Sequence record: PQ821640
Source: Escherichia phage SD2
Direction: 5' to 3' (one strand)
Length of the DNA stretch: 64,000 bases
This document shows, piece by piece, positions 8,580 through 24,613 of the stretch; position 1 is the stretch's first letter, and each line of letters opens with the position of its first letter. The notes under the pieces are model-generated. The model was given only the letters and a program-made list of their open reading frames with translations, was not told where the DNA came from and did not search any database. The translations under genes were made by a program, and so were the position numbers.

Positions 8580-8753
8580 ATGAGTTTCTTTGTTACAGTA
8601 TTTATGGCTATCTGGATTGTAGTCTCACTCGTTCTTTTCCTGGTGGGTTGTCTGGAAGAGATTAAGAAAGCAGTTATTTGCGGTTTCTTTGGCTTTATTA
8701 TCTCTCCTGCCTGGATGTGGTTCTTCATTATGATTGGTTTCCTTAAAAGGTAA
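8580..8753 (+). CDS. small membrane protein (57 aa)
   Basis: Hand translation MSFFVTVFMAIWIVVSLVLFLVGCLEE...; GGGAGAAAGG SD. Confidence 0.5.
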   Translation: MSFFVTVFMAIWIVVSLVLFLVGCLEEIKKAVICGFFGFIISPAWMWFFIMIGFLKR

Positions 8754-8767
8754 GTGAGGAATAAAGA

Positions 8768-9205
8768 ATGAGTAAAACAAACGCAATCGCAGATAAAGCA
8801 ACGGATGTACTTCTGAACATGGTTAACGTCACTATTCAAACAATGAGTGATGTTGTGGAGTTTGGAAAACAACAAATTCCAGAAGTAATCCATCAATTAC
8901 TAGTGTGGAAAGCAGTATCCGCAGGTTTATGGCAACTTTTTAGTATTTGCTTTATGTTTATTACTTTTATTGCTGTGCGGAACCTCGTAAAAGCAATTAA
9001 AGATAAAGAATGCCTGTGGTCACGAGATCGCTATGGTGAAGTATCTGCTTTACCTATTGTTGGTCTTGTTGTCTGTGCTTTCTTTTTCTTTTTAGGATTT
9101 GTTATTTTCTTTTCGAATTTTGATTGGCTAAAAATCATTATTGCACCAAAAGTGTATCTGATTGAATTTGCTGCTGATTTAATTCGTTCATCTCAACAAA
9201 AATAA
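8768..9205 (+). CDS. hypothetical membrane protein
   Basis: 145 aa with several hydrophobic segments. Confidence 0.7.
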   Translation: MSKTNAIADKATDVLLNMVNVTIQTMSDVVEFGKQQIPEVIHQLLVWKAVSAGLWQLFSICFMFITFIAVRNLVKAIKDKECLWSRDRYGEVSALPIVGLVVCAFFFFLGFVIFFSNFDWLKIIIAPKVYLIEFAADLIRSSQQK

Positions 9206-9216
9206 AAGGGGTTAAA

Positions 9217-10344
9217 ATGAAATACACGATTTATGGTGATATTGTAAGTGTAAATAAAGATATGGGTGTGGAATCTAATTATCTTCCACCTGGATTCTAT
9301 ACTGTTAGTCGTGATCCCCTTGGCAATTATTTTTTAAGCCGTGGTAATCTAACAGGTGTACCGGATGTTCTGTATGGTGAAACAGAAAAACGAGCAAATC
9401 ACGTTATCCGTACATTCCATCGCCGGAGTGCACAAGGTAAAAATACAGGTTTGCTTCTGACAGGAACTAAGGGCAGTGGTAAAACTATGTTAGCCAAGCT
9501 CATTAGTCGTGACCTTGTAGAAGAAGGTATTCCAACTATTATGGTTACTCAAGCCTACAGTGATGCTAATTTCATTGAACTTATTAGCAAGATCACCGAC
9601 AAAGCAGTGATTATTTTTGACGAGTTTGATAAAGTGTATGAGAAGAAACAAGATCAAGAAGCACTTCTCACTTTGTTAGATGGTACTGGCAGTGGTAATA
9701 AACTGTTTATTCTAACTAAAAACAGTGGCTTTATCTCTGAATTCTTTCTAAATCGTCCTAGTCGTGTGTTTTATAATTTTAATTATGATAAAATCTCACT
9801 AGAAACTATGATTGACTATTTAGATAAAAACCTGGATAACAAAGCACACTTTGATAATTTCCAAAGACTTTGGGATGTAAGTTTAGAGTTGTCCTTTGAT
9901 GTGATCCAAGGTATAGTAGAAGAACTTAATTTCTACCCTGATTTATCCTTTAAAGAATGCATCTCTATGATGGGCGTTTCTTTGGGTGGTGGTAATAAAT
10001 GGGATATCAGCAGCGTTGTTATTAATGGAAAACTTCAGAAAGTTAGCTGGGTATCTAGTTGGCATAACTTCACACCTGCAATCTTTTTAGGTGGTTCGTG
10101 CACACTAGACGTGTACTTGTCATCTCCAAGTGATGCAGACTCTAAAGAAGCCCTTGCTAATAGCTCTTACGTGGTTTTTGATGATGAAGGCGATGCTCGA
10201 ATTCCATTGAATGCGACAAAAATGAAAGCAGATCTTATTACAGGCGGTAAAATCGTTGTGTTTAGTGATGATCCAGAAGATTCTTTCCGTATTGTTCTGG
10301 AACCAACTATCACCAATGGTGCAACTTTGGCAAGTGTGTTTTAA
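9217..10344 (+). CDS. AAA+ family ATPase
   Basis: Walker A GTKGSGKTMLAK; Walker B VIIFDEFD. Confidence 0.75.
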   Translation: MKYTIYGDIVSVNKDMGVESNYLPPGFYTVSRDPLGNYFLSRGNLTGVPDVLYGETEKRANHVIRTFHRRSAQGKNTGLLLTGTKGSGKTMLAKLISRDLVEEGIPTIMVTQAYSDANFIELISKITDKAVIIFDEFDKVYEKKQDQEALLTLLDGTGSGNKLFILTKNSGFISEFFLNRPSRVFYNFNYDKISLETMIDYLDKNLDNKAHFDNFQRLWDVSLELSFDVIQGIVEELNFYPDLSFKECISMMGVSLGGGNKWDISSVVINGKLQKVSWVSSWHNFTPAIFLGGSCTLDVYLSSPSDADSKEALANSSYVVFDDEGDARIPLNATKMKADLITGGKIVVFSDDPEDSFRIVLEPTITNGATLASVF

Positions 10345-11960: not shown

Positions 11961-12020
11961 TATTTTGAAAATTTTTATTTTTATAAAAAGGGGTGTGGGT
12001 TTCATGTACGGAAATTCACC

Positions 12021-12041
12021 CTCTGAATAATATATTCAGAG
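12021..12041. repeat. perfect inverted repeat CTCTGAATA-ATA-TATTCAGAG
   Basis: 9-bp stem, 3-nt loop, read directly; overlaps a second palindrome CAGAGTA...TACTCTG (12037-12062). Confidence 0.6.
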
Positions 12042-12174
12042 TAAATATTATTTTGTACTCTGTTAATAAATTATTTAATTTGTTTGTTGGATTATGATAT
12101 CTGGTTTTTAAAAGGCATACTATCTCTTAACTACTACTTATAACAGAACAGTAAAATCATTTTTATAAAAAGGA

Positions 12175-12382
12175 CAAAATTATTTAAAGTTTTTACAGAT
12201 TTTTGGATACAAATTTTGAAAATGAAAAGTTCAAGTTTGGTCAAAATTATTTAAAGTTTTTGTATGTATTTCTATCCAGATTTTGAAAATGAAAACTTCA
12301 ATTTTTTAAAAATTCCCCAGTTTATTTAAAGTTTTTTTACCTTTTTCCGTAGAAAAATCAAAAATGAAAAGTTCAATTTCGT
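12175..12382. repeat. three tandem direct repeats of about 68 bp
   Basis: Each unit begins TTATTTAAAGTTTTT and ends TTTTGAAAATGAAAAGTTCAA; AT-rich, non-coding. Confidence 0.7.
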
Positions 12383-12400
12383 GTTTTTATGGGTATGCGT

Positions 12401-12515
12401 ATGATAATCATTCTCATTTGTAAATGAGAATCATTATCATTTAATTATGTAAATGATAAGCATTCTCACTAAGAGAATGAGAATCATTAGCAAATGAGAA
12501 TTTTTCTCATTTGCA
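12401..12515. promoter_or_regulatory. cluster of five or more Fur-box-like dyad motifs
   Basis: ATGATAATCATTCTCATT, AATGAGAATCATTATCATT, ATGATAAGCATTCTCA, GAGAATGAGAATCATTAGC, AATGAGAATTTTTCTCATT; compare E. coli Fur box GATAATGATAATCATTATC. Confidence 0.45.
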
Positions 12516-12772
12516 GAATAACGCGCAGGGGCGGTGTTTGTCTCGCGCTCCCGTGTCCCCTCGCCATACAATAAGAATAGCATAACCAACAACAAAAGCA
12601 AGCGATTATTTTTATCTTTACATTTCTTTACAAATTTATTTTAGACGAGCTACCGGCGATCAACCTTCCAACCAGTGCCCCTGGTATGTTAGCCCCGCCT
12701 TTACGCCGTGGGGGTGGCGCTTCCTCTTCTGTATGTAAAACAGTATAAGCCCGATCCCTGGGCTTGTCAAGA

Positions 12773-13039
12773 TTATTTTTTGTTTTCTTGCCAGGATAGG
12801 ACACCTAACCAAAAATACATGTCGCCCCGTGCCCCTGGCGGGATCTTGCTTTCCCCGCCGCCACTGCAAGCCCATAAATAACCATTTACGAACGTATCAA
12901 AGTGATCTATCTCTTCCACCTTATGATCGCCCAGGTTGAGAACGGTTTCAACCTTTAAGCCCGTTGCGCTTGCTACCTGGTGCACCGTGCCGCCTTGCCA
13001 GCCCAATGAGTGCATGAGATGTAAAGGAGTATTTGTCAT
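12773..13039 (-). CDS. hypothetical protein inside a GC-rich, compositionally atypical segment
   Basis: 88-aa ORF on the opposite strand to the surrounding plus block, within 12520-13130 which is visibly GC-richer; overlapping track ORFs in other frames judged spurious. Confidence 0.4.
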   Translation of the reverse strand: MTNTPLHLMHSLGWQGGTVHQVASATGLKVETVLNLGDHKVEEIDHFDTFVNGYLWACSGGGESKIPPGARGDMYFWLGVLSWQENKK

Positions 13040-13149
13040 GGTATCGCCCTTTCTTTGATGTGCGCCCTGGTTGGCGCGGTAGAAAGATAATAGCCGTTTC
13101 CTTTATAGATAGCAAGCAAAAAAGAAATGAAAAAAGATTAAAAAAATGG

Positions 13150-13209
13150 TTGACGTTCCTCACCTGGTAGCGTAGTATTCATCTTGTCGAGGGGCGGCAA
13201 TAGTGCCGC
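13150..13209 (+). promoter_or_regulatory. promoter (TTGACG-17-TAGTAT) plus 5' hairpin GCGGC-AATAGT-GCCGC
   Basis: Read directly; upstream of ORF 13234. Confidence 0.6.
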
Positions 13210-13233
13210 TCATAACAGAAGAGAGAAATAATC

Positions 13234-13506
13234 ATGGCATCATATAGCGCATCAATGATCGTAGCTGGCATCACTGGTAAACCTATGCGCGGTGGCGGAT
13301 CTTTCGCTAACATCAATATTGATGGACGTTTATCCCTGGACGCAGCGATCACAGTGGCACGGGAAACGTTTAAAAAAGAATGTAATTTCAATAAACAAGA
13401 TTATCTCGGTTTCGCTATTGAAAAAACCGCGCGATTTGTGGATTATAAAAGCCCGAAAATGATCGACACTACACTAAAAGCGCAAGATGTAGCGTTTTTG
13501 CTTTAA
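13234..13506 (+). CDS. hypothetical early protein
   Basis: 90 aa; preceded by promoter-hairpin cassette. Confidence 0.7.
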   Translation: MASYSASMIVAGITGKPMRGGGSFANINIDGRLSLDAAITVARETFKKECNFNKQDYLGFAIEKTARFVDYKSPKMIDTTLKAQDVAFLL

Positions 13507-13509
13507 GTC

Positions 13510-13569
13510 TTGACACTGAAAAATAATTTGGTAATATATACTCCATAAGGCGGGAAATGGTTTCCCGCC
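13510..13569 (+). promoter_or_regulatory. promoter (TTGACA-16-TAATAT) plus hairpin GGCGGGAAA-TGG-TTTCCCGCC
   Basis: Perfect 9-bp stem at 13549-13569, read directly. Confidence 0.65.
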
Positions 13570-13591
13570 AAAACAAAGAAAGGGTAACACA

Positions 13592-13954
13592 ATGAGCAAG
13601 CAAATCAATACTATCATGTTAAACCTGGTATCTTTCCGCGATGACGTGAAAAACCTTTCGCGTGATGCAGTGGATGCACGGATCGAAAGCTATCGCACAC
13701 AGATCGCAACGTTACCGCTGAAACGTGATCAACATGCCGCTAATATGATGCTTGATGCTATGATTAAAAAGATGATTCAATGTGATCTTACCCTGGCTTA
13801 TGAATATGCTGGCGATCTCTTTGTAACATATAGCAAGCCCGTTCCAGGTATGAGCACCACGGAAGAATTGCATGCCTTAAATCTGCGACAAGATGCATGG
13901 GATAACATGCGCCGTGTTATGGTATGGGTAGAAAGCGGTAAAATTTACGAATAA
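13592..13954 (+). CDS. hypothetical early protein
   Basis: 120 aa; AAGGG SD. Confidence 0.7.
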   Translation: MSKQINTIMLNLVSFRDDVKNLSRDAVDARIESYRTQIATLPLKRDQHAANMMLDAMIKKMIQCDLTLAYEYAGDLFVTYSKPVPGMSTTEELHALNLRQDAWDNMRRVMVWVESGKIYE

Positions 13955-13960
13955 AAACGG

Positions 13961-14014
13961 TTGACATTGCACTAAAACCTGATAAGCTATCTTAAAGCGG
14001 GAATTGTTCCCGCT
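13961..14014 (+). promoter_or_regulatory. promoter (TTGACA) plus hairpin AGCGGGAA-TTG-TTCCCGCT
   Basis: Read directly; -10 weak. Confidence 0.5.
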
Positions 14015-14032
14015 TACATAGGATAAAACTTT

Positions 14033-14179
14033 ATGAAACAATATGTAATGAGTATTCATACCAAAAACGGCGCTACTGTTACGACTCCGGCACGGTTTGC
14101 ACTTGTAAACCGTTGCAAGAGACTAAAACGAGAGTTAAAAAATAACCGTGCAACGGGCTTTAAACGCTGGGGAGGATAA
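14033..14179 (+). CDS. small basic protein (48 aa)
   Basis: Hand translation MKQYVMSIHTKNGATVTTPARFALVNRCKRLKRELKNNRATGFKRWGG. Confidence 0.5.
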   Translation: MKQYVMSIHTKNGATVTTPARFALVNRCKRLKRELKNNRATGFKRWGG

Positions 14180-14181
14180 TC

Positions 14182-14442
14182 TTGTTTTTTCTAAAAGTTT
14201 TTGATAATGTGATCGCTTTTGAACATGCTACAACGTTCGACCTGGCGAGATACGCTATCAGGTTTAAAGATAATGTTTATCCCCGTGCTGGCGGCGGTTA
14301 CACTATTTTTAATCATCGCAACGCGCAACTGACTGATGTAACTAATCCAGATCCTGGAGTGTATCGCATAGGCTGGCTACCGTCAAAAGACGCGGCAAGC
14401 ATGTTTAAGTTATGTAAACTACTAACAGAAGAGGCGAACTAA
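14182..14442 (+). CDS. hypothetical protein, TTG start
   Basis: GGGAGG 6 nt upstream of TTG; no in-frame ATG near the start. Confidence 0.45.
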   Translation: MFFLKVFDNVIAFEHATTFDLARYAIRFKDNVYPRAGGGYTIFNHRNAQLTDVTNPDPGVYRIGWLPSKDAASMFKLCKLLTEEAN

Positions 14443-14443
14443 C

Positions 14444-14998
14444 ATGGGGCGTGAATATGTGATCCAGTCCTGGGTAAAGCATGACGCAAATGATCCGCGC
14501 ATAATACCAGATGACATGATCGATCACATGGTGGGGTATAGCGGGGAGCAGATAGGAAATCGAGCGGCAAAGAGCAACGGCAACACCAGAACGAGATCCG
14601 TTCGCCCTGGATGGCTGGCAAATGGTAACGCTGACATTGCAAGCGCCGCAGATCCAAGCGATGACGCTAAAAATAATCCCTTGTATAACATTGATCCGGC
14701 TTTTAAGGTGTTGGAAGAGTATCCCGCTAAATTAGCCGCACTAGATAAAGCATACGAAGAAAAACGGGTGGCATGGACTGTATACAACACCGCTAAAATG
14801 GTGCTAGATGCAAAATTGATTAAAGCCCAGGAGAAGATCAATAAACTTGTTACCATAGCGCAAGAGGAAGACCAGGACGACCAGGAGGAAGAGGAAGAAA
14901 TCATGCCTATCCTGGAAGAGGAAGAGATCCAGCCATACATGCCGACGGAAGAGGAAAAAAGACAAGCCTTAAAAAATTATAAAAATTGTATTGTGTAA
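14444..14998 (+). CDS. hypothetical protein with acidic C-terminal tail
   Basis: 184 aa ending in an EDQDDQEEEEE-rich tail. Confidence 0.7.
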   Translation: MGREYVIQSWVKHDANDPRIIPDDMIDHMVGYSGEQIGNRAAKSNGNTRTRSVRPGWLANGNADIASAADPSDDAKNNPLYNIDPAFKVLEEYPAKLAALDKAYEEKRVAWTVYNTAKMVLDAKLIKAQEKINKLVTIAQEEDQDDQEEEEEIMPILEEEEIQPYMPTEEEKRQALKNYKNCIV

Positions 14999-15001
14999 GG
15001 C

Positions 15002-15057
15002 TTGACATATGCAAACAAGCCCCGTAATATGTACCACATAGAGCGGGGCAACGCCCC
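15002..15057 (+). promoter_or_regulatory. promoter (TTGACA-17-TAATAT) plus hairpin GGGGC-AAC-GCCCC, no ORF directly downstream
   Basis: Followed by a second promoter rather than an RBS. Confidence 0.55.
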
Positions 15058-15079
15058 ATAAGGTGAAATAAAAAATCAC

Positions 15080-15108
15080 TTGACACCTGAAATCAGTAAG
15101 CTATAATG
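15080..15108 (+). promoter_or_regulatory. sigma70 consensus promoter (TTGACA-17-TATAAT)
   Basis: Perfect -35 and -10 hexamers. Confidence 0.65.
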
Positions 15109-15144
15109 CTTATATAAATTAAAGCGTTACTAAGGAATAAAATC

Positions 15145-15510
15145 ATGGCTAAAAATATTAATGTTTCTGCTTATGCTACCCTGGCTAATACTGCTAAAAT
15201 TGAACTATCCAGCATTGAAGCGGTACATATTAGCGCCCGTCGCTGGTTTCAAAAGTCTTATGGTAATACTTATTTCTCTTTGATGGTTGACGTTGAGATC
15301 GGCGGTAAACTGATTGAAGTCGTTAACGTTCCGTTTCATTATGGTTATGGTGATCATTTTGATACCGTTGCCCTGGAAGAGTTTAGCAAGGTTATCAACC
15401 TGGAAGGTAAAGAGTTTTCAAATTATGCTTATCTTTCCCGTTTTTGCCGTGATAATGGGATCGCTGTATACAGTCATGCAAGCGATGTTAAACGTAAAAA
15501 AGATTTATAA
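15145..15510 (+). CDS. hypothetical early protein
   Basis: 121 aa. Confidence 0.7.
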   Translation: MAKNINVSAYATLANTAKIELSSIEAVHISARRWFQKSYGNTYFSLMVDVEIGGKLIEVVNVPFHYGYGDHFDTVALEEFSKVINLEGKEFSNYAYLSRFCRDNGIAVYSHASDVKRKKDL

Positions 15511-15516
15511 AAAGCA

Positions 15517-15576
15517 TTGACAGCACGAATAAAAAGAGTAAAATGTTTCATATCAGGACGGGGGAACGGTTTCCCC
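15517..15576 (+). promoter_or_regulatory. promoter (TTGACA-16-TAAAAT) plus hairpin GGGGGAA-CGG-TTTCCCC
   Basis: Read directly. Confidence 0.55.
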
Positions 15577-15599
15577 TCCTAACAAAGAGAGAAATAAAA

Positions 15600-15782
15600 A
15601 TGGCTAAATGCACTATTTGTAAGAAAGAAATAGTATTAGTTCCAAGCGCCCGTGAACGTGCCGCTAAGTTCGGTGGCAAACCGTCAGACTATACGAAAAT
15701 GTTTACTACCCATGCAGCTTGTCAAGTAGCAAAACGTTCACAAGAAAGCGTAGAATTAATGCGTAAACTTTCCAAAAAATAA
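15600..15782 (+). CDS. small Cys-containing protein (60 aa), possible zinc ribbon
   Basis: Track ORF started inside the promoter; ATG at 15600 follows GAGAGA; CTICKK...HAAC. Confidence 0.6.
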   Translation: MAKCTICKKEIVLVPSARERAAKFGGKPSDYTKMFTTHAACQVAKRSQESVELMRKLSKK

Positions 15783-15785
15783 GTA

Positions 15786-15844
15786 TTGACAAAGTATTTT
15801 ATTACTATATAATGGTTTACATCGAGAGCGGGAATAGTTCCCGC
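15786..15844 (+). promoter_or_regulatory. promoter (TTGACA-16-TATAAT) plus hairpin GCGGGAA-TAG-TTCCCGC
   Basis: Read directly. Confidence 0.65.
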
Positions 15845-15868
15845 CTCACTGAAAAAGAGATTAACATC

Positions 15869-16108
15869 ATGGCTAAATCTAAAATGTACAACGGTCACAA
15901 AAATAAAACTCATTGGAATGTAAGCCTTTGGATTAATAACGATCCAGGTTTTTATAATATGGCAAAAGAATTTATAGCCGTGAACAACAATAAAGATAAC
16001 GCCGCGCGTGAAATGATGTCATTACTTAACGAAATGGGCCAAAATACTACGCCAGATGGCTATAAATTCAGTAAAACCAGTATCCGCGCCGCTATGGTAG
16101 GAATGTAA
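15869..16108 (+). CDS. hypothetical early protein
   Basis: Start trimmed to ATG after the hairpin (MAKSKMYNG...). Confidence 0.65.
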   Translation: MAKSKMYNGHKNKTHWNVSLWINNDPGFYNMAKEFIAVNNNKDNAAREMMSLLNEMGQNTTPDGYKFSKTSIRAAMVGM

Positions 16109-16117
16109 TAAAAGCAG

Positions 16118-16177
16118 TTGACAACGTTTTTTAATCTGGTATAGTTTATCACATAGGGCGGGAAATGGTTTCCCGCC
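16118..16177 (+). promoter_or_regulatory. promoter (TTGACA-16-TATAGT) plus hairpin GGCGGGAAA-TGG-TTTCCCGCC
   Basis: Read directly. Confidence 0.65.
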
Positions 16178-16199
16178 AAATGAAAGAAAGGTTATCATT

Positions 16200-16427
16200 A
16201 TGGCTATCGTTATTGTTCGCGTATCCGGCACGGTTGGAATCTCCCAGGTAGTAGCAGTTATCACCGAGAAGAAAGGGGATGATCTTCACTCCTCCTTGAA
16301 TAGCTGGGCGGTCGCTAATTTCGGGCAATGGTCGAGCGTTGAGTATATCGAATCCTACCAGGTGCCAACGATTAGCCTAACCGATCTGAATGTTGATCGC
16401 TTATTGTGCCTGGATGGATTAAACTAA
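16200..16427 (+). CDS. hypothetical early protein
   Basis: 75 aa. Confidence 0.65.
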   Translation: MAIVIVRVSGTVGISQVVAVITEKKGDDLHSSLNSWAVANFGQWSSVEYIESYQVPTISLTDLNVDRLLCLDGLN

Positions 16428-16435
16428 AAATAATC

Positions 16436-16491
16436 TTGACAAGATAACTAAAATCAGTAAAATGTAATGCATAGGGCGGCAATAGTGCCGC
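16436..16491 (+). promoter_or_regulatory. promoter (TTGACA-16-TAAAAT) plus hairpin GCGGC-AATAGT-GCCGC
   Basis: Read directly. Confidence 0.65.
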
Positions 16492-16514
16492 TCATAGTAA
16501 GAGAGATTATCAAA

Positions 16515-16730
16515 ATGGCTAATATCCGCACACTGTTAAAAAATGCAAGTCAAGTTTTATTTTCAGATGACGAGTATTTCAACAAAGACATTACAGGCGT
16601 GAAAAATTTAAAAGACGTGAAGGATGTTATCGGTATCCGTGGATCTTTACGTAAAGGTGACATATACGGTAACAAGGTGCAATATAAACTATCAAAAGAT
16701 TATGATTTTACTTTGACAATTATTTCATAA
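16515..16730 (+). CDS. hypothetical early protein
   Basis: Start trimmed to ATG at 16515 (MANIRTLL...). Confidence 0.65.
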   Translation: MANIRTLLKNASQVLFSDDEYFNKDITGVKNLKDVKDVIGIRGSLRKGDIYGNKVQYKLSKDYDFTLTIIS

Positions 16731-16737
16731 AACTACT

Positions 16738-16797
16738 TGCAAACCTGGTAAAATAAAGTAAACTATATTCATTAAGGCGGTGGAATAGCCCACCGCC
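16738..16797 (+). promoter_or_regulatory. promoter-like region plus hairpin GGCGGTGG-AATAGC-CCACCGCC
   Basis: 8-bp perfect stem; promoter hexamers less clear (TTGCAA, TAAACT). Confidence 0.45.
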
Positions 16798-16820
16798 TAA
16801 CAAAGAGAAGAGGAAACATC

Positions 16821-16991
16821 ATGATCACTTTCGCTACCCGTGAAGCCGCTCGCAACGTTGCACGTAAAGTTAACGCCGCCAACCTGGGCGCTACGCTTAA
16901 AGCCCCGGTGAAAGATGAATCAGGAAAATGGATCTTTCCTGGTCTGCGTCACGCTGATAAGCTGGGGACATTAACGTTAAAAAATAAATAA
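16821..16991 (+). CDS. small hypothetical protein (56 aa)
   Basis: Hand translation MITFATREAARNVARKVNAANLG...; GAGGAAA SD. Confidence 0.55.
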   Translation: MITFATREAARNVARKVNAANLGATLKAPVKDESGKWIFPGLRHADKLGTLTLKNK

Positions 16992-16998
16992 TATCCGC

Positions 16999-17027
16999 TT
17001 GACAGTAGCATCATTTATAAGTAAAGT
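16999..17027 (+). promoter_or_regulatory. sigma70-like promoter (TTGACA-17-TAAAGT)
   Basis: Read directly; no hairpin of the usual type. Confidence 0.45.
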
Positions 17028-17121
17028 AACAACAACGGCGGGAAAATTATTGGTTATATATTGCAAGCATGATCATAACTTTGGCAAAATATCATAACGT
17101 AGCGTAATCGAGAGGAAAAAC

Positions 17122-17259
17122 ATGAACGCATCACAGCAGATCGAAAAATTCAACCGCAGCAAGGCGCGTAAAAATTGGAACGAAGAGATCACCAAGAAAG
17201 GCGATAAGCGGAACAAAACAAAAAGAGATCGCAGCACAAAAAGACACTGGAACGAATAA
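17122..17259 (+). CDS. small basic protein (45 aa)
   Basis: MNASQQIEKFNRSKARKNWNEEITKKGDKRNKTKRDRSTKRHWNE; GAGAGGAAA SD; terminator immediately downstream. Confidence 0.5.
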   Translation: MNASQQIEKFNRSKARKNWNEEITKKGDKRNKTKRDRSTKRHWNE

Positions 17260-17262
17260 CAA

Positions 17263-17287
17263 AAAGGGCGCAATAAGCGCCCTTTTA
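17263..17287 (+). terminator. rho-independent terminator
   Basis: GGGCGC-AATAA-GCGCCC then TTTT. Confidence 0.75.
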
Positions 17288-17377
17288 GCTTATATAGAGG
17301 CTTGTTACCCATAGGCAATGGTAACGCCAGGGCAAGCCTATAAATCAACGTTAGACGGCTTTACAGGAGCTTTAAAA

Positions 17378-17560
17378 ATGAGATTAGAAGAAATAAGCAA
17401 GGCACTAGCCCAGGGGCAAAGGTTATGCGCCCGATATCGTGATCAATATGGCTTTATAACTAGCGGCGTGATCCTGGGGATTGAAGGCAATAAAATTTTT
17501 ATTGACACGTTGAAAAACGTTGTATATAGTGACAATATAATCTCAATAAAACATATATGA
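17378..17560 (+). CDS. hypothetical protein (60 aa)
   Basis: Start at ATG after CAGGAG SD; track ORF begins earlier at 17318. Confidence 0.5.
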   Translation: MRLEEISKALAQGQRLCARYRDQYGFITSGVILGIEGNKIFIDTLKNVVYSDNIISIKHI

Positions 17561-17568
17561 GGCAAGAA

Positions 17569-17970
17569 ATGAAAAAATTATTGATCGCTGGTTTAATCTC
17601 TTTTGGCATGGTTGGAACATCTAGCGCGGCGATATCCTCCACAGTAGCAGAATTAAGCGCCGTTGATGCAATGGAAAACGTCATGATCATTAATAACGCG
17701 ATCCCCGATGAAATCATGGAGGATTCACACATGATCGCTTATGGTGCTGTTACACAATTAACGGCAAAAATAGATAAATCTATTGTTAATGGCTTAAATG
17801 AAGATGTACCATGTGAAATTATTACCAGTGTGCTAACGACTCAAAATTTTACGCCGTGGCTAAAAAGTATTCAAAAGGTACACAGCACCGCCGCAGATCG
17901 TAGCAATGAAAAACTAGTGTCAGCACTTGCAACGTATACCCTAGCAAAATGTACCGAGATAAAAGGTTGA
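17569..17970 (+). CDS. hypothetical secreted/periplasmic protein
   Basis: MKKLLIAGLISFGMVGTSSAA signal-peptide-like N-terminus; GAGG SD. Confidence 0.65.
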   Translation: MKKLLIAGLISFGMVGTSSAAISSTVAELSAVDAMENVMIINNAIPDEIMEDSHMIAYGAVTQLTAKIDKSIVNGLNEDVPCEIITSVLTTQNFTPWLKSIQKVHSTAADRSNEKLVSALATYTLAKCTEIKG

Positions 17971-17993
17971 CAATATAGAAAGCACGTTATAAG
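17967..17993 (+). promoter_or_regulatory. sigma70-like promoter (TTGACA-15-TATAAG)
   Basis: Read directly. Confidence 0.45.
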
Positions 17994-18015
17994 ATACACA
18001 ACAAAGGAGAACCAC

Positions 18016-18318
18016 ATGAACGGCATAGCTAAAACGTTTTTTCTTTTTTCTGGTGTAAATGATCCATCAATAAAAGTCGATAGTGTAAAAGAAAACAATA
18101 CTATCACCGCTAAATTGTTTCAAGATGAAACAAATAACGTGCTAATCATTAATCTTAAAGAAATAACGAAAGGTTATTATACTATTGCTTACCATGCGAT
18201 CTATCATGCGGGTACTAGTGAGGAAGTGCAAACAAGCAACAACGAAAGCGCGGCGCTACCTGGTGATCTGGTGCTGGGCGTTATCAGTTTAATTGTCAAT
18301 GATTTTTTTAAGGAGTAA
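18016..18318 (+). CDS. hypothetical protein
   Basis: 100 aa; AAGGAG SD. Confidence 0.65.
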   Translation: MNGIAKTFFLFSGVNDPSIKVDSVKENNTITAKLFQDETNNVLIINLKEITKGYYTIAYHAIYHAGTSEEVQTSNNESAALPGDLVLGVISLIVNDFFKE

Positions 18319-18322
18319 AACC

Positions 18323-18418
18323 ATGCCCTATTTACATTTATTTTTCGGTATCTTATTGACAGGATCTTTTTTCTTCTGTATGCTTGTTTCTATTGTAAAC
18401 CACGTTTTAAGACATTAA
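18323..18418 (+). CDS. tiny hydrophobic peptide (31 aa)
   Basis: MPYLHLFFGILLTGSFFFCMLVSIVNHVLRH; AAGGAG SD. Confidence 0.3.
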   Translation: MPYLHLFFGILLTGSFFFCMLVSIVNHVLRH

Positions 18419-18427
18419 GGAAACAGC

Positions 18428-18547
18428 ATGAAAATTATTCCCGTACAGTATAGCGTAATAAATCCAGCATATGAGGAAGGAAGGAAAACAAGCATGGCTT
18501 TATGTTGTATTACTACTATAGCCATGTTATTATATATTGTGTTTTAA
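18428..18547 (+). CDS. tiny membrane peptide (39 aa)
   Basis: MKIIPVQYSVINPAYEEGRKTSMALCCITTIAMLLYIVF; AAGGAAA SD. Confidence 0.3.
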   Translation: MKIIPVQYSVINPAYEEGRKTSMALCCITTIAMLLYIVF

Positions 18548-18576
18548 TAGGTTTTATAGTTGTACGCTTTAAAGGC

Positions 18577-18604
18577 TTGACAATTTTTTGTTATGCTTTA
18601 AAAT
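18577..18604 (+). promoter_or_regulatory. sigma70-like promoter (TTGACA-16-TAAAAT)
   Basis: Read directly. Confidence 0.45.
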
Positions 18605-18647
18605 ATATCTTGAAAACGGCAAAGGCCGCAAACAAAAGGGTAAAATT

Positions 18648-18971
18648 ATGAAATCTGTGATCGGTGTTTATTTGGATAACTCTGATTTTTTCTATCATCG
18701 TGCGCGTTTCCTTGATGCGATTGAAATGATAGAATCAGGCTTTAAAGAGTATCGCCTTGCACATGATGACCTGGAAGCATTACAGGGCAATAGTGTTTTT
18801 ACATTGCAAGCTAAAGCACTATGTAAAAGCCGGATCGACATTGCGAGCAAAAAGATAGAACGCGGCATGTCCTGGTTACGCACCGCAGAAATTAACATGG
18901 GGCAATGGTACGGCGAAAACTTAGAAAATAAACTCACTTTTGTAAATGTAGAAAATCTTAAAGATTATTGA
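18648..18971 (+). CDS. hypothetical protein
   Basis: Start trimmed to ATG at 18648. Confidence 0.6.
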   Translation: MKSVIGVYLDNSDFFYHRARFLDAIEMIESGFKEYRLAHDDLEALQGNSVFTLQAKALCKSRIDIASKKIERGMSWLRTAEINMGQWYGENLENKLTFVNVENLKDY

Positions 18972-19033
18972 TTGACAGCACGCCTGATAAGGAGTATATT
19001 GTATCTCATAGAGCGGGGAAATGGTTTCCCCGC
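18972..19033 (+). promoter_or_regulatory. promoter (TTGACA-17-TATATT) plus hairpin GCGGGGAAA-TGG-TTTCCCCGC
   Basis: Read directly. Confidence 0.65.
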
Positions 19034-19053
19034 CTTAACAGAAGAGATAAGAT

Positions 19054-19338
19054 ATGAAAATCACAAAAGCACTTTTCAACTATGCAGCACGTCGCGGATT
19101 ATGCTTATCCGTTGAAAATTTAGGAAAAGAAGATTTTTTGTGCTTTTGGGAGCTTGAGAATGATAATGAGTGGATCTTCTCTTATTCTATCTGCAAAGAT
19201 CAAAATGGTTGCTTGTTAACCTGGCACGGTAATATCTATTTGCCGGAAGAAATAAAACAAGAATTACCAGGCACGATCATGACTGAGAAACAGCTTAAGG
19301 AAGTGATCAATTTTGTAAGGCAAAACATTAAAAAATAA
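19054..19338 (+). CDS. hypothetical early protein
   Basis: 94 aa. Confidence 0.7.
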   Translation: MKITKALFNYAARRGLCLSVENLGKEDFLCFWELENDNEWIFSYSICKDQNGCLLTWHGNIYLPEEIKQELPGTIMTEKQLKEVINFVRQNIKK

Positions 19339-19339
19339 T

Positions 19340-19400
19340 TTGACAGTAGGCAAACAACGTAGTAAAGTTTACCACATAGGGCGGGAAATGGTTTCCCGCC
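19340..19400 (+). promoter_or_regulatory. promoter (TTGACA-17-TAAAGT) plus hairpin GGCGGGAAA-TGG-TTTCCCGCC
   Basis: Read directly. Confidence 0.6.
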
Positions 19401-19418
19401 AGAATAGAGAGAACTAAA

Positions 19419-19523
19419 ATGATTATTCTTACCATGATGTGCGCGGCGGTTATTATTCCTTTGATAACGCTTATTGTTTCTGAGATCGATGATCTTCTCT
19501 TTGAAAGAAGTTTAAAAAAGTAA
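19419..19523 (+). CDS. tiny membrane peptide (34 aa)
   Basis: MIILTMMCAAVIIPLITLIVSEIDDLLFERSLKK. Confidence 0.4.
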   Translation: MIILTMMCAAVIIPLITLIVSEIDDLLFERSLKK

Positions 19524-19585
19524 TTGACAACGGCTAATAAGCTGATAATATGTATCACATAGGGCGGGGCAATAAGGCAACGCCC
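19524..19585 (+). promoter_or_regulatory. promoter (TTGACA-17-TAATAT) plus weaker hairpin GGGCG...CGCCC
   Basis: 5-bp stem with long loop. Confidence 0.5.
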
Positions 19586-19603
19586 ACTAATGAGGGTAGC
19601 ATC

Positions 19604-19708
19604 ATGTTAGAGAAAATTTTCACGGTTGTAATAGTGGGCCTGGCGTTATCGGTTGGAGTGATTGCAACTATGGCTAACATGATCCTATCTTCCCACGGTA
19701 TCGGCTAA
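19604..19708 (+). CDS. tiny membrane peptide (34 aa)
   Basis: MLEKIFTVVIVGLALSVGVIATMANMILSSHGIG. Confidence 0.4.
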   Translation: MLEKIFTVVIVGLALSVGVIATMANMILSSHGIG

Positions 19709-19722
19709 AAGAGAAACACAAC

Positions 19723-20109
19723 ATGAAAACAGAAATCATTATTGAAATCATCAACGGTTATAAAGAAGCCTTTATTTTTGCTGAATCAGCAAGGGATCAT
19801 GAAGGTAATTTTATTGATAACTTAGACGATTATGATTTTTCAGATCAAGCCCATCAACGGATCATTAATGACGTAGCGGCTTATTGTGATGCCAATGATG
19901 CTGCTATCTCTGAGGCAATGAGCGACGGCGCAACAGCAAACCAGATCGGGAATGATTTACATTTTACCCGTAACGGTCACGGCGTAGGTTTTTGGGATCG
20001 CCCTGAAATATACACTACTAACACCGCCAACCGCCTAACAAATGCAGCTAGATTAATGCCATCGGTGCATGCTTACATTGGTGAAGATAATTTGATTTAT
20101 ATTGAATAA
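19723..20109 (+). CDS. hypothetical protein
   Basis: 128 aa. Confidence 0.7.
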   Translation: MKTEIIIEIINGYKEAFIFAESARDHEGNFIDNLDDYDFSDQAHQRIINDVAAYCDANDAAISEAMSDGATANQIGNDLHFTRNGHGVGFWDRPEIYTTNTANRLTNAARLMPSVHAYIGEDNLIYIE

Positions 20110-20115
20110 AAAGTG

Positions 20116-20174
20116 TTGACACCGATCCCCAATATGGTATTATTTACCACGTAGGCGGGAAATGGTTTCCCGCC
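20116..20174 (+). promoter_or_regulatory. promoter (TTGACA-16-TATTAT) plus hairpin GGCGGGAAA-TGG-TTTCCCGCC
   Basis: Read directly. Confidence 0.65.
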
Positions 20175-20198
20175 AGGTAATCAAAAAAGGTAAACATT

Positions 20199-20588
20199 AT
20201 GCGCAACCTGATTTCTGTTTCTAACGTTGAAAAATTTCAATCCTTGCAGGGTATCATTAACAACGTAGCGCCTTTTTTAGTCAATGGCTTGATTGCAAAG
20301 ATGAAAAATAAACATCATGCGGCATGGTCTGCTTATTGCTTTGATAATGATGAAAAAGCGGCTGAAATGATGTTAAATATGCTTTTGGATAGTGTAGAAT
20401 CATCTTTACCGGAAAACATCGCAGAAGAGATCACCTATCGTTATAATATGGCGATCACTTACCAGGAGGTTGCGCAATTCAACATGATGGATGATGACGA
20501 ACAACAGGATCAAGAAATGTTCTGGGAGTATGCAGATCGTCAATCGGCTTTTGATGAAAAGTTAGCGATGTATTATAACGAATATTAA
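20199..20588 (+). CDS. hypothetical acidic protein
   Basis: 129 aa. Confidence 0.7.
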   Translation: MRNLISVSNVEKFQSLQGIINNVAPFLVNGLIAKMKNKHHAAWSAYCFDNDEKAAEMMLNMLLDSVESSLPENIAEEITYRYNMAITYQEVAQFNMMDDDEQQDQEMFWEYADRQSAFDEKLAMYYNEY

Positions 20589-20602
20589 TACACGGTAAAA
20601 GA

Positions 20603-20630
20603 AAGGGGCGCACTAAGCGCCCTTTTTTGT
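20603..20630 (+). terminator. rho-independent terminator
   Basis: GGGCGC-ACTAA-GCGCCC then TTTTTT. Confidence 0.75.
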
Positions 20631-20973
20631 ATTCTTTTTTCACGATGGAAACAACACGTAAAGAATAGGCGTAAAGGTGGCGTAAAACAGCCTAAAACCG
20701 ATTATAACCGCTTAAACAAGGTAGGGATGATTAATCACCTTACCAGGATGAAAAAGCCGTTATAAAGCTATCTAGAGCGTTTAAAGCACATAGGAAATAA
20801 TTTGCTTTTTATCTTGCCTTTTATTCTGCTTTTGATTATTATTATGGAACGGGCGGCACCTGGGAGCAGGGGAAGATAATCACCGGACGATCTTATTATA
20901 TATTGATAGCTTCCACCTATCAAACAACAAAACATTAAAGAAATAAACTATCAAATCTTTACAATCTCACCTA

Positions 20974-21033
20974 TTGACACCGGATCGCCCTTATACTAAG
21001 ATGTATCACGTAGGCGGGAAGTGGTTTCCCGCT
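20974..21033 (+). promoter_or_regulatory. promoter (TTGACA-17-TAAGAT) plus hairpin GCGGGAAG-TGG-TTTCCCGC
   Basis: Read directly. Confidence 0.55.
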
Positions 21034-21051
21034 CAATATAGGAATCATATC

Positions 21052-21282
21052 ATGATCGAACAAATTAAACGCGCTGAGGCTATTAACGGCAATGTGATCT
21101 ACTCTGTCAGCAATAACGAAAAAGGCGTACCTTATGCAGCGGTGATAGTACAGCCTGACGGTGATTATTGGTTTACTGTATACGGATCTTATTCTTTTGG
21201 GCGTCCAGTACATGATAAAATTTTGAAAGTAGCTAATCCCACTGGGAAGAATATCACAGTAGAAAAATTCTTTGAAAAATAA
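21052..21282 (+). CDS. hypothetical early protein
   Basis: Start trimmed to ATG at 21052. Confidence 0.65.
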   Translation: MIEQIKRAEAINGNVIYSVSNNEKGVPYAAVIVQPDGDYWFTVYGSYSFGRPVHDKILKVANPTGKNITVEKFFEK

Positions 21283-21357
21283 CTTGCTTTATAGCCTCTG
21301 TTAATTTATAGTTATCGTGTAGGGCAAGCAATTTTAAACGGTAAACGAGGAATCTCC

Positions 21358-21741
21358 ATGAGCAATATCATCAACCTGGCGGCTACTGTAAACGGTAAAG
21401 ATTTTAACGGCGCTGTAGATCGTGATCCTATGTGGTACTTGTCAGTATTTAAAGGCGATCTGGTTGAAGTTAGAACAACCGAAGGGTATAGCGATGATTA
21501 TAAATGCGAGATCCATTTACATAACTGGTACACGGGGAAAACTTATGCGCTAAACCATGCGTTTATCGGGAAAATTGAATATCGCGAGATGATCGACGAA
21601 GAAACGGGGCAAGATTTTAGCGATTATGTTTATATTCGTTCAGAAACATTAGCCGAACGTTTGATCGAGAAAATGAAAGCAAAAAATAAAATTAATTTAG
21701 CTCATTGGCTTGATATAACAAACGATCCGGCTTATAAGTAA
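21358..21741 (+). CDS. hypothetical protein
   Basis: 127 aa; GAGGAA SD. Confidence 0.7.
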   Translation: MSNIINLAATVNGKDFNGAVDRDPMWYLSVFKGDLVEVRTTEGYSDDYKCEIHLHNWYTGKTYALNHAFIGKIEYREMIDEETGQDFSDYVYIRSETLAERLIEKMKAKNKINLAHWLDITNDPAYK

Positions 21742-21751
21742 ATAACATTTC

Positions 21752-21785
21752 ACACCAGGGCGCACAAAGCGCCCTTTCTTTTTTA
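21752..21785 (+). terminator. rho-independent terminator
   Basis: AGGGCGC-ACAAA-GCGCCCT then TTCTTTTTT. Confidence 0.75.
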
Positions 21786-21988
21786 CCTAAATAAAGATGA
21801 TAGCTTTTACCTATCAAAAACGTTCACCGAAAAAAGTGAATAGATCGCGGTATCGAGCTAATCAAGGAGCAGATGAACAACCATACCATGAAGATCATAA
21901 GGCGCTTACAACGTGTTTTAGACCGCTTATTTTTAATTTCTTCATGTAACTATCTGGCAAAAACAGCCTTTTTCTTGTCTTTCCTCTT

Positions 21989-22065
21989 AAATGATAATCA
22001 TTCTTATTTATAGCTGATTATTTATGCAATAAACTGAATAATGTAATAATGATAATCATTCTTAA
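21989..22065. promoter_or_regulatory. two direct copies of AATGATAATCATTCTTA (Fur-box-like)
   Basis: At about 21989 and 22047 inside an AT-rich non-coding region. Confidence 0.45.
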
Positions 22066-22890
22066 CTTAAGACCATCTAACCTATAAAATAATAAGTTAT
22101 CTAACTAAATTAAAACTAATTATCTCACCTTTATTTATAACTTACTGTTACTATCTCATTGATAACCTTATATTAAACAACAATAACTAATATAAATTAT
22201 TACTAAGCTAAATATAATCTATCTAACCTTTAAAACTATAATTATAATCTATCGAATTGTTGCACAAAGTAACTATTAAATTGTTAGTAACATTACTAAA
22301 TAATTAATATCCTATCTATTTATGATCTAATCTTTACCTTCCTATTTATTACCTAAATAATCATTTCATACCGTAATCATTTCATACAATAATTATAACA
22401 AGAAATATAATTAACAAGCGTATCATTAGCAGCCTATGCCGGACACATAGGCGGCTAATAATAACGCAACTACACACCCCACATAATAACCATCACCGAT
22501 AGTTATTATTTGTGCTTATGTAGCTTGCAACAACTGCAAGCGCAACAATATACATGGTATATTGTATTCCCTTACATTGTTGCGGTGCGTTATTATTAGC
22601 TAATGTTTGGAACATTGGCTATAATATAAGCTATCCAATAATAAACATAGTGAATAATAACCCTGATGATCATAATGCGCCACCTTCCAGGGGGCGCTAT
22701 GTGAACACAAAGAAATCTTTCTTGTCAAGAAAAATATTACCATTATTGCGCAAAATTATTTACATCTGAATAGATGGTTTTTCATACTATTGCCCCATAT
22801 AGCCTATCATTTGTTGAGCCTACTTTCTTAAAAGCGCAATAAATTAGAATTATCTTGATTTTTAGGGCGTTTTATAGTATAGAAAATATG

Positions 22891-22915
22891 CAAATGATAA
22901 TCATTATCAGTTATC
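22891..22915. promoter_or_regulatory. Fur-box-like site AATGATAATCATTATC
   Basis: 16 consecutive matches to the E. coli Fur consensus as I recall it. Confidence 0.5.
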
Positions 22916-23070
22916 TTCCACGGGTGGCACTATTTCACGCAGGATCATTTCATTTGGCAAGGTGTATATAGATGTTTAGACTTGCCAAGCCATTGATTTG
23001 CTTAGAATTTATCTGTTTTGTTGTGAGTAATGCCTTTCTTGCTCAGAAAATAATCAAAAGTCTTATAAGT

Positions 23071-23114
23071 CATTGAATGATAATGCAAATGATAATAATT
23101 CTCATTGATATTTG
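23071..23114. promoter_or_regulatory. degenerate tandem Fur-box-like motifs
   Basis: GAATGATAATGCAAATGATAATAATTCTCATTGATA. Confidence 0.4.
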
Positions 23115-23512
23115 AGGGGGACGGTCAGCAGAAATCGGGGGGCGCTGAAAATCGCGTTAAGCACCTCTCGCAAGCGAGCAGTATTTTGCGGCAAGTTATT
23201 GATATTATTGACTTTACGCTTATGAAAAGGGGGTGTGTCGAAATAAATCGGGTATACCGGAAAATTTTTGTGGCATAGATATTTATTTGTCTATATTATG
23301 TACAAAGGGGTGTGTTAAAAATATTAGGTATATATAGAATAATTGATAGGGAAATCCTATACTAAATCCTTCATTATTGCAGCGGGTGAAAGACAGAATC
23401 GAAGATGCAAATAATGCTTGCATTGGATAGAAATGTCTGTATAGTGGTTTGCATACCGCGCACGACGCGTTTCCATTTTCAATAAAATGTTAGCATTATG
23501 GGGAGGTAGAAA

Positions 23513-23980
23513 ATGAGCGAAAAACCAGTGAGAGCTTCCACAATATTGGAAGCATACCTGCAATGCGTTGTAGATTACGTCAAGAGAAACTCCAGCCTAC
23601 TGGACGTCTACCGTGCAGATGATGGCGATGTTGGTATTGTCTATGTGAAACACACTTTATCCGCGCGTAATGAGGTTTTCCGTGCAAGTATGTTAGGGTG
23701 TGATCGTGTTCGTGTGAACTATTTAGACCCGAACTATCGCCATGCTCTTGAAGATATTGAAGATTATCTTCCTCGCTGCCCGACAGGTAATGCAAAAGTG
23801 GCAGAAGAAGCCCCACAAGGTGTTGATTATCGTGTAGCCTTGTGGAAAAAGGCACGTCAACTACAAGTGCTGAATGAAATGAAAGAAGAGATTGAAAAAG
23901 AACTGAAAGAAGATTTTGGTATGCTTCCAAAAGACGCTTTGAAATGGTATGATGAACTAGGAGGAGAAAGTTATGAATAA
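23513..23980 (+). CDS. hypothetical protein
   Basis: 155 aa; GGGGAGG SD. Confidence 0.7.
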   Translation: MSEKPVRASTILEAYLQCVVDYVKRNSSLLDVYRADDGDVGIVYVKHTLSARNEVFRASMLGCDRVRVNYLDPNYRHALEDIEDYLPRCPTGNAKVAEEAPQGVDYRVALWKKARQLQVLNEMKEEIEKELKEDFGMLPKDALKWYDELGGESYE

Positions 23981-24149
23981 AGGAACTACTGTATATTTAG
24001 TGACTAAGAACACCCCAGGTTGGAATCAGTGCACAACAACTCCGTATAAGATTTGTGCAACATTGGAACTAGCACGACGTGCAGAAGCAGAAGTTGATGC
24101 TATGCGATACAGCTATGGTGAAATCATTCCTTTTACTCTTCAACAATAA
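23973..24149 (+). CDS. small hypothetical protein (58 aa)
   Basis: MNKGTTVYLVTKNTPGWNQCTTTPYKICATLELARR...; GGAGGAG SD; overlaps upstream stop. Confidence 0.45.
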   Translation: MNKGTTVYLVTKNTPGWNQCTTTPYKICATLELARRAEAEVDAMRYSYGEIIPFTLQQ

Positions 24150-24160
24150 GGATTTGTGTA

Positions 24161-24613
24161 ATGTTTGAAATTGGTAAAGTGTATCGTTTTAAGAACGCAT
24201 CTTATATCCGTAAGTTTGCTAATATGTCTGAGTGCAATAGCAGGATTGCTTCTTTCTTAGGTGATTCCTATTTTCGTGTATTAGATGTGGATGACTGGTA
24301 TGGTGTCACTGCTTTGCAATCCTTAGCAGGAGAACAAGAAATTATCGCTCAAAATGAAGGAGACTTTCTTCAGTGTTACACGTTGCTTGCAAAAAGTGAG
24401 TTTGAATACTTTGTAGAAGTATTAGAAGAAGCACCAAAAAGTAAACACGAAGAGAAATACCTGCTTGTAGTGGATGGAGTTCCGATCATGGAAACCATCT
24501 CCCGTGAGGAAGTTGAAAAAGAGGCAAAACGTTACAAACTGGATCGTACACAGAGTGTAGTCGAAGTCTATTCTCTTGTTGGTGTTGCAGATATTAATGT
24601 GACCATTGTATAA
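24161..24613 (+). CDS. hypothetical protein
   Basis: 150 aa. Confidence 0.7.
   Translation: MFEIGKVYRFKNASYIRKFANMSECNSRIASFLGDSYFRVLDVDDWYGVTALQSLAGEQEIIAQNEGDFLQCYTLLAKSEFEYFVEVLEEAPKSKHEEKYLLVVDGVPIMETISREEVEKEAKRYKLDRTQSVVEVYSLVGVADINVTIV

Follow-up and report, generated by a model that had tools for sequence, protein, structure and literature searches.

The 64,000-nucleotide stretch of Escherichia phage SD2 analysed here (PQ821640; hereafter the window) belongs to a phi92/phAPEC8-like virulent myovirus of the genus Justusliebigvirus (subfamily Stephanstirmvirinae), and our subject is a set of sequences within it that resemble binding sites of Fur, the iron repressor of the host. The phage family is described as lytic and devoid of lysogeny genes (PMC11350853). 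The right-hand group of these Fur-like sites falls in a gene-free gap of 1.75 kb (21742-23512; about 1.5-2 kb in annotated relatives). It is bordered on the left by a homologue of Phi92 gp248 (21358-21741, Pfam Phage_30_8) and on the right by small early genes, homologues of Phi92 gp002-gp003, from 23513 onwards. The gap has a G+C content of 32% and short repeats are abundant in it. The genes neighbouring the Fur-like sites have no known function and no toxin gene adjoins them. Many Justusliebigvirus Escherichia phages match the region 21000-24500 at 90-95% identity, and Phapecoctavirus and related Klebsiella phages match part of it at about 75%.

A preliminary description of this DNA had placed four Fur-box-like elements at the right border of an early gene block, and all four are present, with coordinates that agree within 1-3 bases. 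The first two share the 17-mer AATGATAATCATTCTTA, which indeed occurs in identical form at 21990-22006 and 22048-22064. Site R1 (21989-22009, AAATGATAATCATTCTTATTT) has a 7-1-7 core at 21992-22006 with two mismatches and scores 27.4 bits with the phage matrix described below; the terminator that follows the last right-end gene is about 215 bp away on its left, and the left cut of the direct terminal repeat (DTR, see below) is 817 bp away on its right. Site R2 (22045-22067, AATAATGATAATCATTCTTAACT) matches the Fur 19-mer at 16 of 19 positions, again with two mismatches in its 7-1-7 repeat. Site A (22890-22912), inside the DTR and centred 86 bp from its left cut, contains GCAAATGATAATCATTATC (22890-22908), which agrees with the Fur consensus GATAATGATAATCATTATC at 17 of 19 positions; the 16 consecutive consensus matches reported for it correspond to positions 4-19 of this sequence. 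Site A also holds a perfect 7-1-7 inverted repeat, TGATAATcATTATCA, at 22895-22909. What had been called a degenerate tandem near 23071-23114 is site B (23079-23115), likewise inside the DTR, an array of the hexamers GATAAT GCAAAT GATAAT A ATTCTC ATTGAT in phase, with a 7-1-7 core at 23090-23104 (one mismatch) and its centre 62 bp from the right cut. An invariant TGATATTTG block adjoins site B. A further group, the left array, comprises five sites at 12397-12512 with 1-3 mismatches each to the 7-1-7 repeat or the consensus, so that the left cluster of the preliminary description is real as well.

The identity of the motif was addressed with a 21-nt weight matrix built from nine phage sites only, which was scanned on E. 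coli K-12 DNA. In the 26-kb ent/fep region, the top seven non-overlapping matches all fell in the three divergent promoter regions that Fur controls there, fepA-fes, fepD-entS and fepB-entC, which make up 2.8% of the DNA scanned; the best of them was AAATGATAATCATTATTAAAG at entC. A 45-kb region, selected for containing ryhB, yielded one outstanding match of 25.9 bits (the next reached 12.2) directly upstream of ryhB, which is the ryhB Fur box. The consensus of the phage sites, AAATGATAATCATTATCATTT, equals the Fur consensus with its usual flanks. None of the consensus sequences of ArgR, IHF, Zur, PurR and TyrR appears to fit the phage motif. Furthermore, matches overlap at a spacing of 6 bp at 22890/22896, 23079/23085/23091, 12397/12403 and 12420/12426, the pattern of footprinted E. 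coli Fur clusters (PMC2189734), and the phage sites form in-phase arrays of at least three hexamers, as in the hexamer-array model of the Fur box. The original label of Fur-box-like is strengthened by a consensus match beyond chance and by the recovery of known E. coli Fur boxes with a matrix derived from phage DNA only. On sequence grounds the phage sites are Fur boxes, and site A is very close to the consensus. They share with the boxes of the E. coli Fur regulon (entC, fepA-fes, ryhB; 19-bp consensus) the core and flanks, the 6-bp overlaps and the clustering. The E. coli boxes, however, precede iron-uptake genes, whereas the phage sites lie in the terminal repeat and in origin-like non-coding DNA of a virulent phage, without a conserved overlapping promoter at the right-hand sites, and Fur binding to them is a prediction. 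A Fur of the phage's own is unsupported: tblastn with E. coli Fur found nothing better than E = 1.8 in the window and the complete genome of Salmonella phage UAB_1.

AT-rich, repeat-rich non-coding DNA may produce such matches by chance, and the composition of the gap and its many short repeats speak for this explanation. The counts do not. At up to three mismatches to the Fur 19-mer, the window holds six matches where 0.03 are expected, and at up to one mismatch to the 13-mer core 13 matches where 0.42 are expected. The gap itself contains five sites against 0.065 expected under its own first-order Markov model, and none of 1000 composition-matched simulations reached five. The left gap has four matches at the same cut-off (0.014 expected). 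Moreover, the orthologous positions of the sites are kept in divergent genera. A chance origin of the Fur-like sites, to which we assign a vanishingly small probability, is thereby excluded.

The position of the sites gains meaning from the ends of the virion DNA. Window 22817-23159 on the plus strand is 97.1% identical to the annotated 343-bp DTR of UAB_1, a phage of the same genus with the repeat at both ends, and is by homology the DTR of this phage, likewise of 343 bp and marking the physical ends of the virion DNA. UAB_1 was reported to have short DTRs (PMC11350853), a DTR of 342 bp was reported for BME3, for which packaging was determined with PhageTerm (PMC12210895), and members of the Stephanstirmvirinae end in DTRs according to one paper (PMC12695924). 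Several database records terminate at or near window 22816, and the alignment shows no variation between genera around the cut sites, which read ATGTTG|AGCC at the left and CGCGTTA|AGCAC at the right. From the homology of the DTR and the ends of the records it follows that the gap is the region of the concatemer junction; as judged from these sequences, the virion DNA has its right end in window 1-22816 and its left end from 22817 onwards. Since sites A and B lie inside the DTR, they would be carried twice per virion DNA, which brings the number of Fur-like sites to about 11 per virion DNA: two in each DTR copy, two just left of the right-hand DTR and five in the left array 10 kb upstream. This arrangement modifies the earlier proposal that the sites bracket the whole early-cassette block. 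The left array and the pair at 21990/22048 do flank the promoter cassettes at about 13150-21741. The two strongest right-hand sites, A and B, had also been assigned to the right border, but instead of bordering a gene block they lie inside the DTR.

The sites are kept at both borders in homologous phages, a comparison which had been suggested as a check. The complete UAB_1 genome, assembled from four stretches, was scanned; its sites were confined to the DTR (two per copy), to a pair at a distance of about 770-830 bp on the left of the right DTR and to the equivalent of the array at 12397-12512, the remaining matches being scattered and close to chance in number (three, with 1.6 expected). In distant relatives the identity of the gap drops to only about 50%, and the orthologous sites are kept nonetheless. 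In Justusliebigvirus and Phapecoctavirus, 84-86 bp separate the left cut from the centre of site A. For site B the distance between its centre and the right cut is 61-66 bp in all the relatives compared, three IMG/VR contigs among them. The IMG/VR relatives were collected by protein search (five) and by DNA pattern (three), matches to the 16-nt pattern being mostly due to chance. In the lineage of the Klebsiella phage KP13-26, site A is lost and a weaker box stands about 26 bp further in, which looks like site turnover. The orthologue of R1 is kept in Phapecoctavirus and KP13-26, its 21-nt window being at the 89th conservation percentile of the gap, and R2 is conserved only in part among distant relatives.

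The constant distances to the cuts could also indicate that the sites in the DTR are recognition elements of the packaging machinery, terminase or its small subunit, which position the cuts. One site stands by each DTR boundary, at a conserved 86 and 62 bp, and site B adjoins the invariant block that runs from TGATATTTG to CGCGTTA|AGCAC. Sites of an abundant host protein at fixed positions near genome ends have precedents in the IHF site of lambda cosB and in the repeats and DnaA-box-like sequences near the injection stop signal of phage T5; the host protein differs, and we know of no role of Fur in packaging or DNA entry. This explanation leaves aside the five-box array 10 kb away as well as R1 and R2, and it sits uneasily with the shift of site A by about 26 bp in the KP13-26 lineage.

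A further argument came from the host. About 340 of 5,426 complete E. coli genomes carry an exact 26-nt copy of 23134-23159 (ATCGGGGGGCGCTGAAAATCGCGTTA) that ends exactly at the right cut, and about 140 further genomes carry a diverged version of the right end of the DTR. In one E. coli genome the match grows to 46 nt with 93% identity across the cut, preceded by the TGATATTTG block. The copies reside on a 12-kb island integrated at tRNA-Thr/proA (E. coli NZ_CP027577 1811000-1836000; NZ_CP019560 1457541-1465588), which encodes an integrase, helix-turn-helix proteins, a Dit-like tail protein and a Phage_cap_E major capsid protein of its own, 23% identical over its full length to the phage capsid protein. 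Some 2-3 kb of the island DNA is unannotated and matches the terminal region of the phage in further short, collinear stretches. It copies the right-cut block, yet no Fur-like site was found in the 8 kb scanned, where the best matrix score was 3.2 bits. Since the island keeps the cut block without a box, the function common to island and phage would not need the box; if the cutting signal is this common block, it does not include the Fur box, and a role in packaging is unlikely. Taken with the points above, we consider the packaging explanation very improbable. The island resembles a satellite, as yet undescribed, which would have these virulent phages as helpers and mimic their packaging signal; a search of the literature found nothing that links satellites to this phage group. 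The island provides the sole host matches to the DTR and these do not include the boxes. Capture of the sites from a Fur-regulated host promoter was discarded too, the DTR having no extended similarity to E. coli promoters.

The left array provides the clearest context for a function. Its five sites, at spacings of 17-29 bp, stand between three direct repeats of about 70 bp (12159-12379, iteron-like) and a conserved GC-rich non-coding element. The architecture of this 1.27-kb non-coding region (11961-13233) is common to Phapecoctavirus and to the separate subfamily Vequintavirinae, of which W70, SSE121, KB57, PBES 02, ABPH49 and one Av-05-like contig were compared: three to four iteron-like direct repeats are followed by one to five Fur-like boxes, mostly at 23-29-bp spacing, then by the GC-rich element and a minus-strand promoter. 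phAPEC8 has four boxes at 29-bp spacing, Vequintavirinae one to four. In Vequintavirinae the last box lies between a -35-like TTGAAT and a -10-like (C/T)AGAAT, 18 bp apart (for example TTGAATGAGAATCATTCTCATTTGCAGAAT), and the distance from the box to the nAGAAT hexamer is 4 nt in all eight phages of the two subfamilies. Fur operators are usually arranged in this way, with the box occupying the spacer of a core promoter. In the left array of the window the -35 hexamer is weaker than in Vequintavirinae.

The non-coding element that follows (12513-12775, about 200-250 bp) is common to Stephanstirmvirinae and Vequintavirinae, GGTATGTTAGCCCCGCCTTTACGCCGTGGGG being identical in W70. It is flanked by convergent conserved promoters, the Fur-boxed TTGAAT-18-nAGAAT on the plus strand and TTGACA-17-TATACT on the minus strand; the latter, at 12770-12742, is directed back into the GC-rich element. 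The part that begins at about 12521 ends at a conserved hairpin with a pyrimidine-rich tail (12704-12730), and its plus-strand consensus fold shows modest covariation, with compensatory changes in five of 21 pairs. No Rfam family matched either non-coding region at gathering or relaxed thresholds. The element is a candidate for a Fur-controlled non-coding transcript in an origin-like region; an origin, or a sense/antisense RNA pair, are candidate readings of it as well.

The promoters of the early genes have a different build. The right-end early block (13150-21741) consists of at least 17 cassettes, each with one or two small open reading frames of unknown function, and their promoters are near-consensus sigma-70 sequences (TTGACA-N16/17-TAnnnT) followed by the conserved hairpin CATAGGGCGGGAAATGGTTTCCCGCC at the predicted 5' end of the transcript. 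None of these cassette promoters has the Fur-like motif, which is therefore not simply the promoter of the phage; a phage early promoter was ruled out as its identity. The promoter of the first left-end early gene (TTGCAT-16-TATAGT, 23418-23445, plus strand), about 260 bp right of the DTR, resembles in architecture the cassette promoters with their 5' hairpin and does not overlap the Fur-like sites. Near the right-hand sites we found a weak candidate, TTAACT-17-TAAAAT at 22062-22090 (heuristic score 10.3), whose -35 hexamer is overlapped by R2. The best sigma-70-like candidate in the DTR, TTGGCA-17-TAGACT at 22954-22982, points rightwards on the plus strand between A and B and scores 12.0, the cassette promoters scoring 12.8-14.6 on the same scale. 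Justusliebigvirus has this candidate, KP13-26 only a degenerate form of it, and Phapecoctavirus has lost it by deletion; as it is not retained across genera, it is no conserved partner of the boxes.

Considering these data together, the reading we favor is that the sites are operators for host Fur-Fe2+ which act in cis and have been selected in the terminal non-coding control regions of phi92/phAPEC8-like virulent phages. As far as can be judged from sequence comparison, we give it a probability of roughly 0.5. By inference from E. coli Fur, Fur-Fe2+ dimers would occupy the in-phase GATAAT-type hexamer arrays in iron-replete cells and spread along them. Weak host-type promoters, whether located between the boxes or overlapping with them, would then be closed to RNA polymerase by bound Fur. 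The left array would show this most clearly, since there the last box sits in the spacer of the promoter-like element ahead of the non-coding element of about 200 nt, by the iteron-like repeats. Under iron scarcity Fur would leave the DNA and the transcripts would be released, which would make some function of the terminal region dependent on iron. We suspect that the process controlled is the transcription of an origin or primer, or transcription across the junction.

Several observations weigh against such a cis-acting operator function. A virulent phage has no obvious gain from repression when iron is plentiful. By column identity, the four right-hand sites are at the 72nd-89th percentile of the gap and several blocks are more conserved. 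In promoter scoring and in the alignment of relatives, no conserved sigma-70 promoter was found to overlap the four right-hand sites, so that promoter occlusion is not demonstrated there. Finally, the consensus of distant relatives drifts to TGAGAAT-N-ATTCTCA, which would also fit a phage protein with a specificity of its own; this half-site is found in E. coli Fur boxes such as that of ryhB, too.

The last point leads to an explanation in which the palindromes are operators of a dimeric DNA-binding protein encoded by the phage, whether an initiator or accessory factor of replication, a regulator that acts early or a junction binder, and in which the likeness to Fur boxes is coincidence or mimicry. 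The preference of distant relatives for TGAGAAT-N-ATTCTCA would agree with it, as would the clean 7-1-7 palindrome (up to 10-1-10), a typical target of a dimeric protein, and the neighbourhood of the iteron-like repeats in the origin-like region. A conserved, all-helical protein of 88 amino acids (12773-13039, minus strand) is encoded about 260 bp from the left array and has a highly conserved N-terminus that appears helix-turn-helix-like by eye; searches of this protein found neither a DNA-binding fold nor a Pfam domain. However, the phage consensus equals that of Fur and recovers the host boxes, and by our estimate a half-site independent of Fur would fall within one mismatch of TGATAAT only about 0.1-1% of the time. 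Abundant host Fur would also be expected to compete at sites so close to the consensus. We therefore regard a phage-encoded binder as unlikely, though by no means far-fetched. The 155-amino-acid product of 23513-23980, annotated as putative DNA-binding in phage PaulScherrer, was considered as a binder and set aside: it has no Pfam domain, and its model, with a pLDDT of 78, gave no significant fold match.

The same sequence evidence of Fur-box identity would be expected if the boxes acted in trans. Replicated phage DNA would then soak up the Fur pool and de-repress iron uptake and RyhB-mediated iron sparing in the host, in a natural version of the Fur titration assay (FURTA), with the payoff of iron for the iron-dependent ribonucleotide reductases of the phage. 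Genes for class Ia and class III ribonucleotide reductases and for a glutaredoxin are indeed present in the phage family, and the number of boxes is high and varies between lineages (one to five in the left array), as expected if dosage matters. A cell holds about 5,000-10,000 Fur molecules, and we estimate that some 100-300 genomes with nine arrays each would provide sites of the same order, which favors titration. For a pure decoy, however, position should not matter, whereas A and B stay at constant distances from the DTR cuts and the last left box holds its register with the promoter-like element across subfamilies. Some Vequintavirinae have a single box in the stretch examined, too few for much titration, and the benefit would have to come within one short lytic cycle. 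Titration of Fur appears distinctly unlikely to us as the function for which the sites were selected, and we return to the cis-acting operators as the favored reading.

Two known systems resemble these operators in being phage-borne cis elements for a host iron repressor: in Stx1 prophages a Fur box at the stx1 promoter, and in corynephage beta the DtxR operator of tox. Each consists of one operator that precedes the toxin cargo gene of a temperate phage, whereas the present phage is a virulent myovirus with about 11 sites per virion DNA in its terminal repeat and control regions; the features of a toxin-gene operator (a single operator, a cargo toxin gene, a lysogenic phage) are not found here. 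FURTA, in which Fur boxes on a multicopy plasmid de-repress a chromosomal fhuF::lacZ fusion, is a precedent for the de-repression of the Fur regulon. It has in common with the phage DNA that many high-affinity boxes ride on an amplifying replicon, with the difference that it is a laboratory artefact. To our knowledge, no natural phage has been shown to use this effect. In the literature that we searched, neither conserved clusters of Fur boxes in a virulent phage nor Fur boxes inside a terminal repeat are described. Fur boxes and iron-repressor operators before toxin genes were already known; for Fur boxes of this or any other virulent phage, our searches found no mention.

In a broader sense, it is possible, although we put this forward tentatively, that a widespread family of virulent coliphages, whose relatives infect Klebsiella and Salmonella, employs Fur as an iron sensor at its termini and origin-like region. 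Replication and early transcription would then be gated by iron, or the replicating phage DNA would be a sponge for Fur that turns on iron uptake by the host and so feeds the ribonucleotide reductases. If true, this would be a tangible example in which a lytic phage reads or rewires a global regulator of its host. If Fur binds, the behavior of the phage would differ between iron-poor and iron-rich conditions. Members of the group are used in cocktails for therapy and biocontrol, UAB_1 being part of the PhagoVet product, and infected tissue and the gut control iron tightly, so that phage efficacy there could depend on iron.

The anatomy of the previously unannotated 1.75-kb region is now set, from the terminator over the Fur boxes, a conserved hairpin cluster and the DTR with its cut sites to the first early promoter. 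The intrinsic terminator at 21757-21785 (plus strand) closes the right-end early block and is the most conserved element of the gap (0.98 identity among distant relatives); the annotation of phage Paula lists it as a terminator. A second palindrome, TGATAG-N7-CTATCA, occurs at 20904-20922 and 21798-21816 (TGATAGCTTCCACCTATCA and TGATAGCTTTTACCTATCA; two matches where 0.18 are expected). Its copy at 21798 falls within one of the most conserved blocks of the gap, and it may be the operator of a different protein. The motif AAAGGGGTGTG is present in both long non-coding regions, at 11987-11997 where the left region starts and at 23227-23237 and 23304-23314 just right of the DTR. Its count is marginally above chance (four matches, 0.85 expected), and the copies right of the DTR are conserved in relatives.

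The hairpin cluster lies at 22420-22605, 212-397 bp left of the left cut of the DTR. Folded as single-stranded DNA it reaches -42.1 kcal/mol, compared with -18.8 +/- 3.0 kcal/mol in shuffled sequences (z = -7.75). In phage T7, a hairpin beside the concatemer junction is used when the terminal repeat is duplicated. Both sides of the 15-bp outer stem of the cluster (GCTAATAATAACGCA / TGCGTTATTATTAGC) change in ZCKP1 (..AAGCC / GGCTT..) and in KP13-26 (..ACCGC / GCGGT..).

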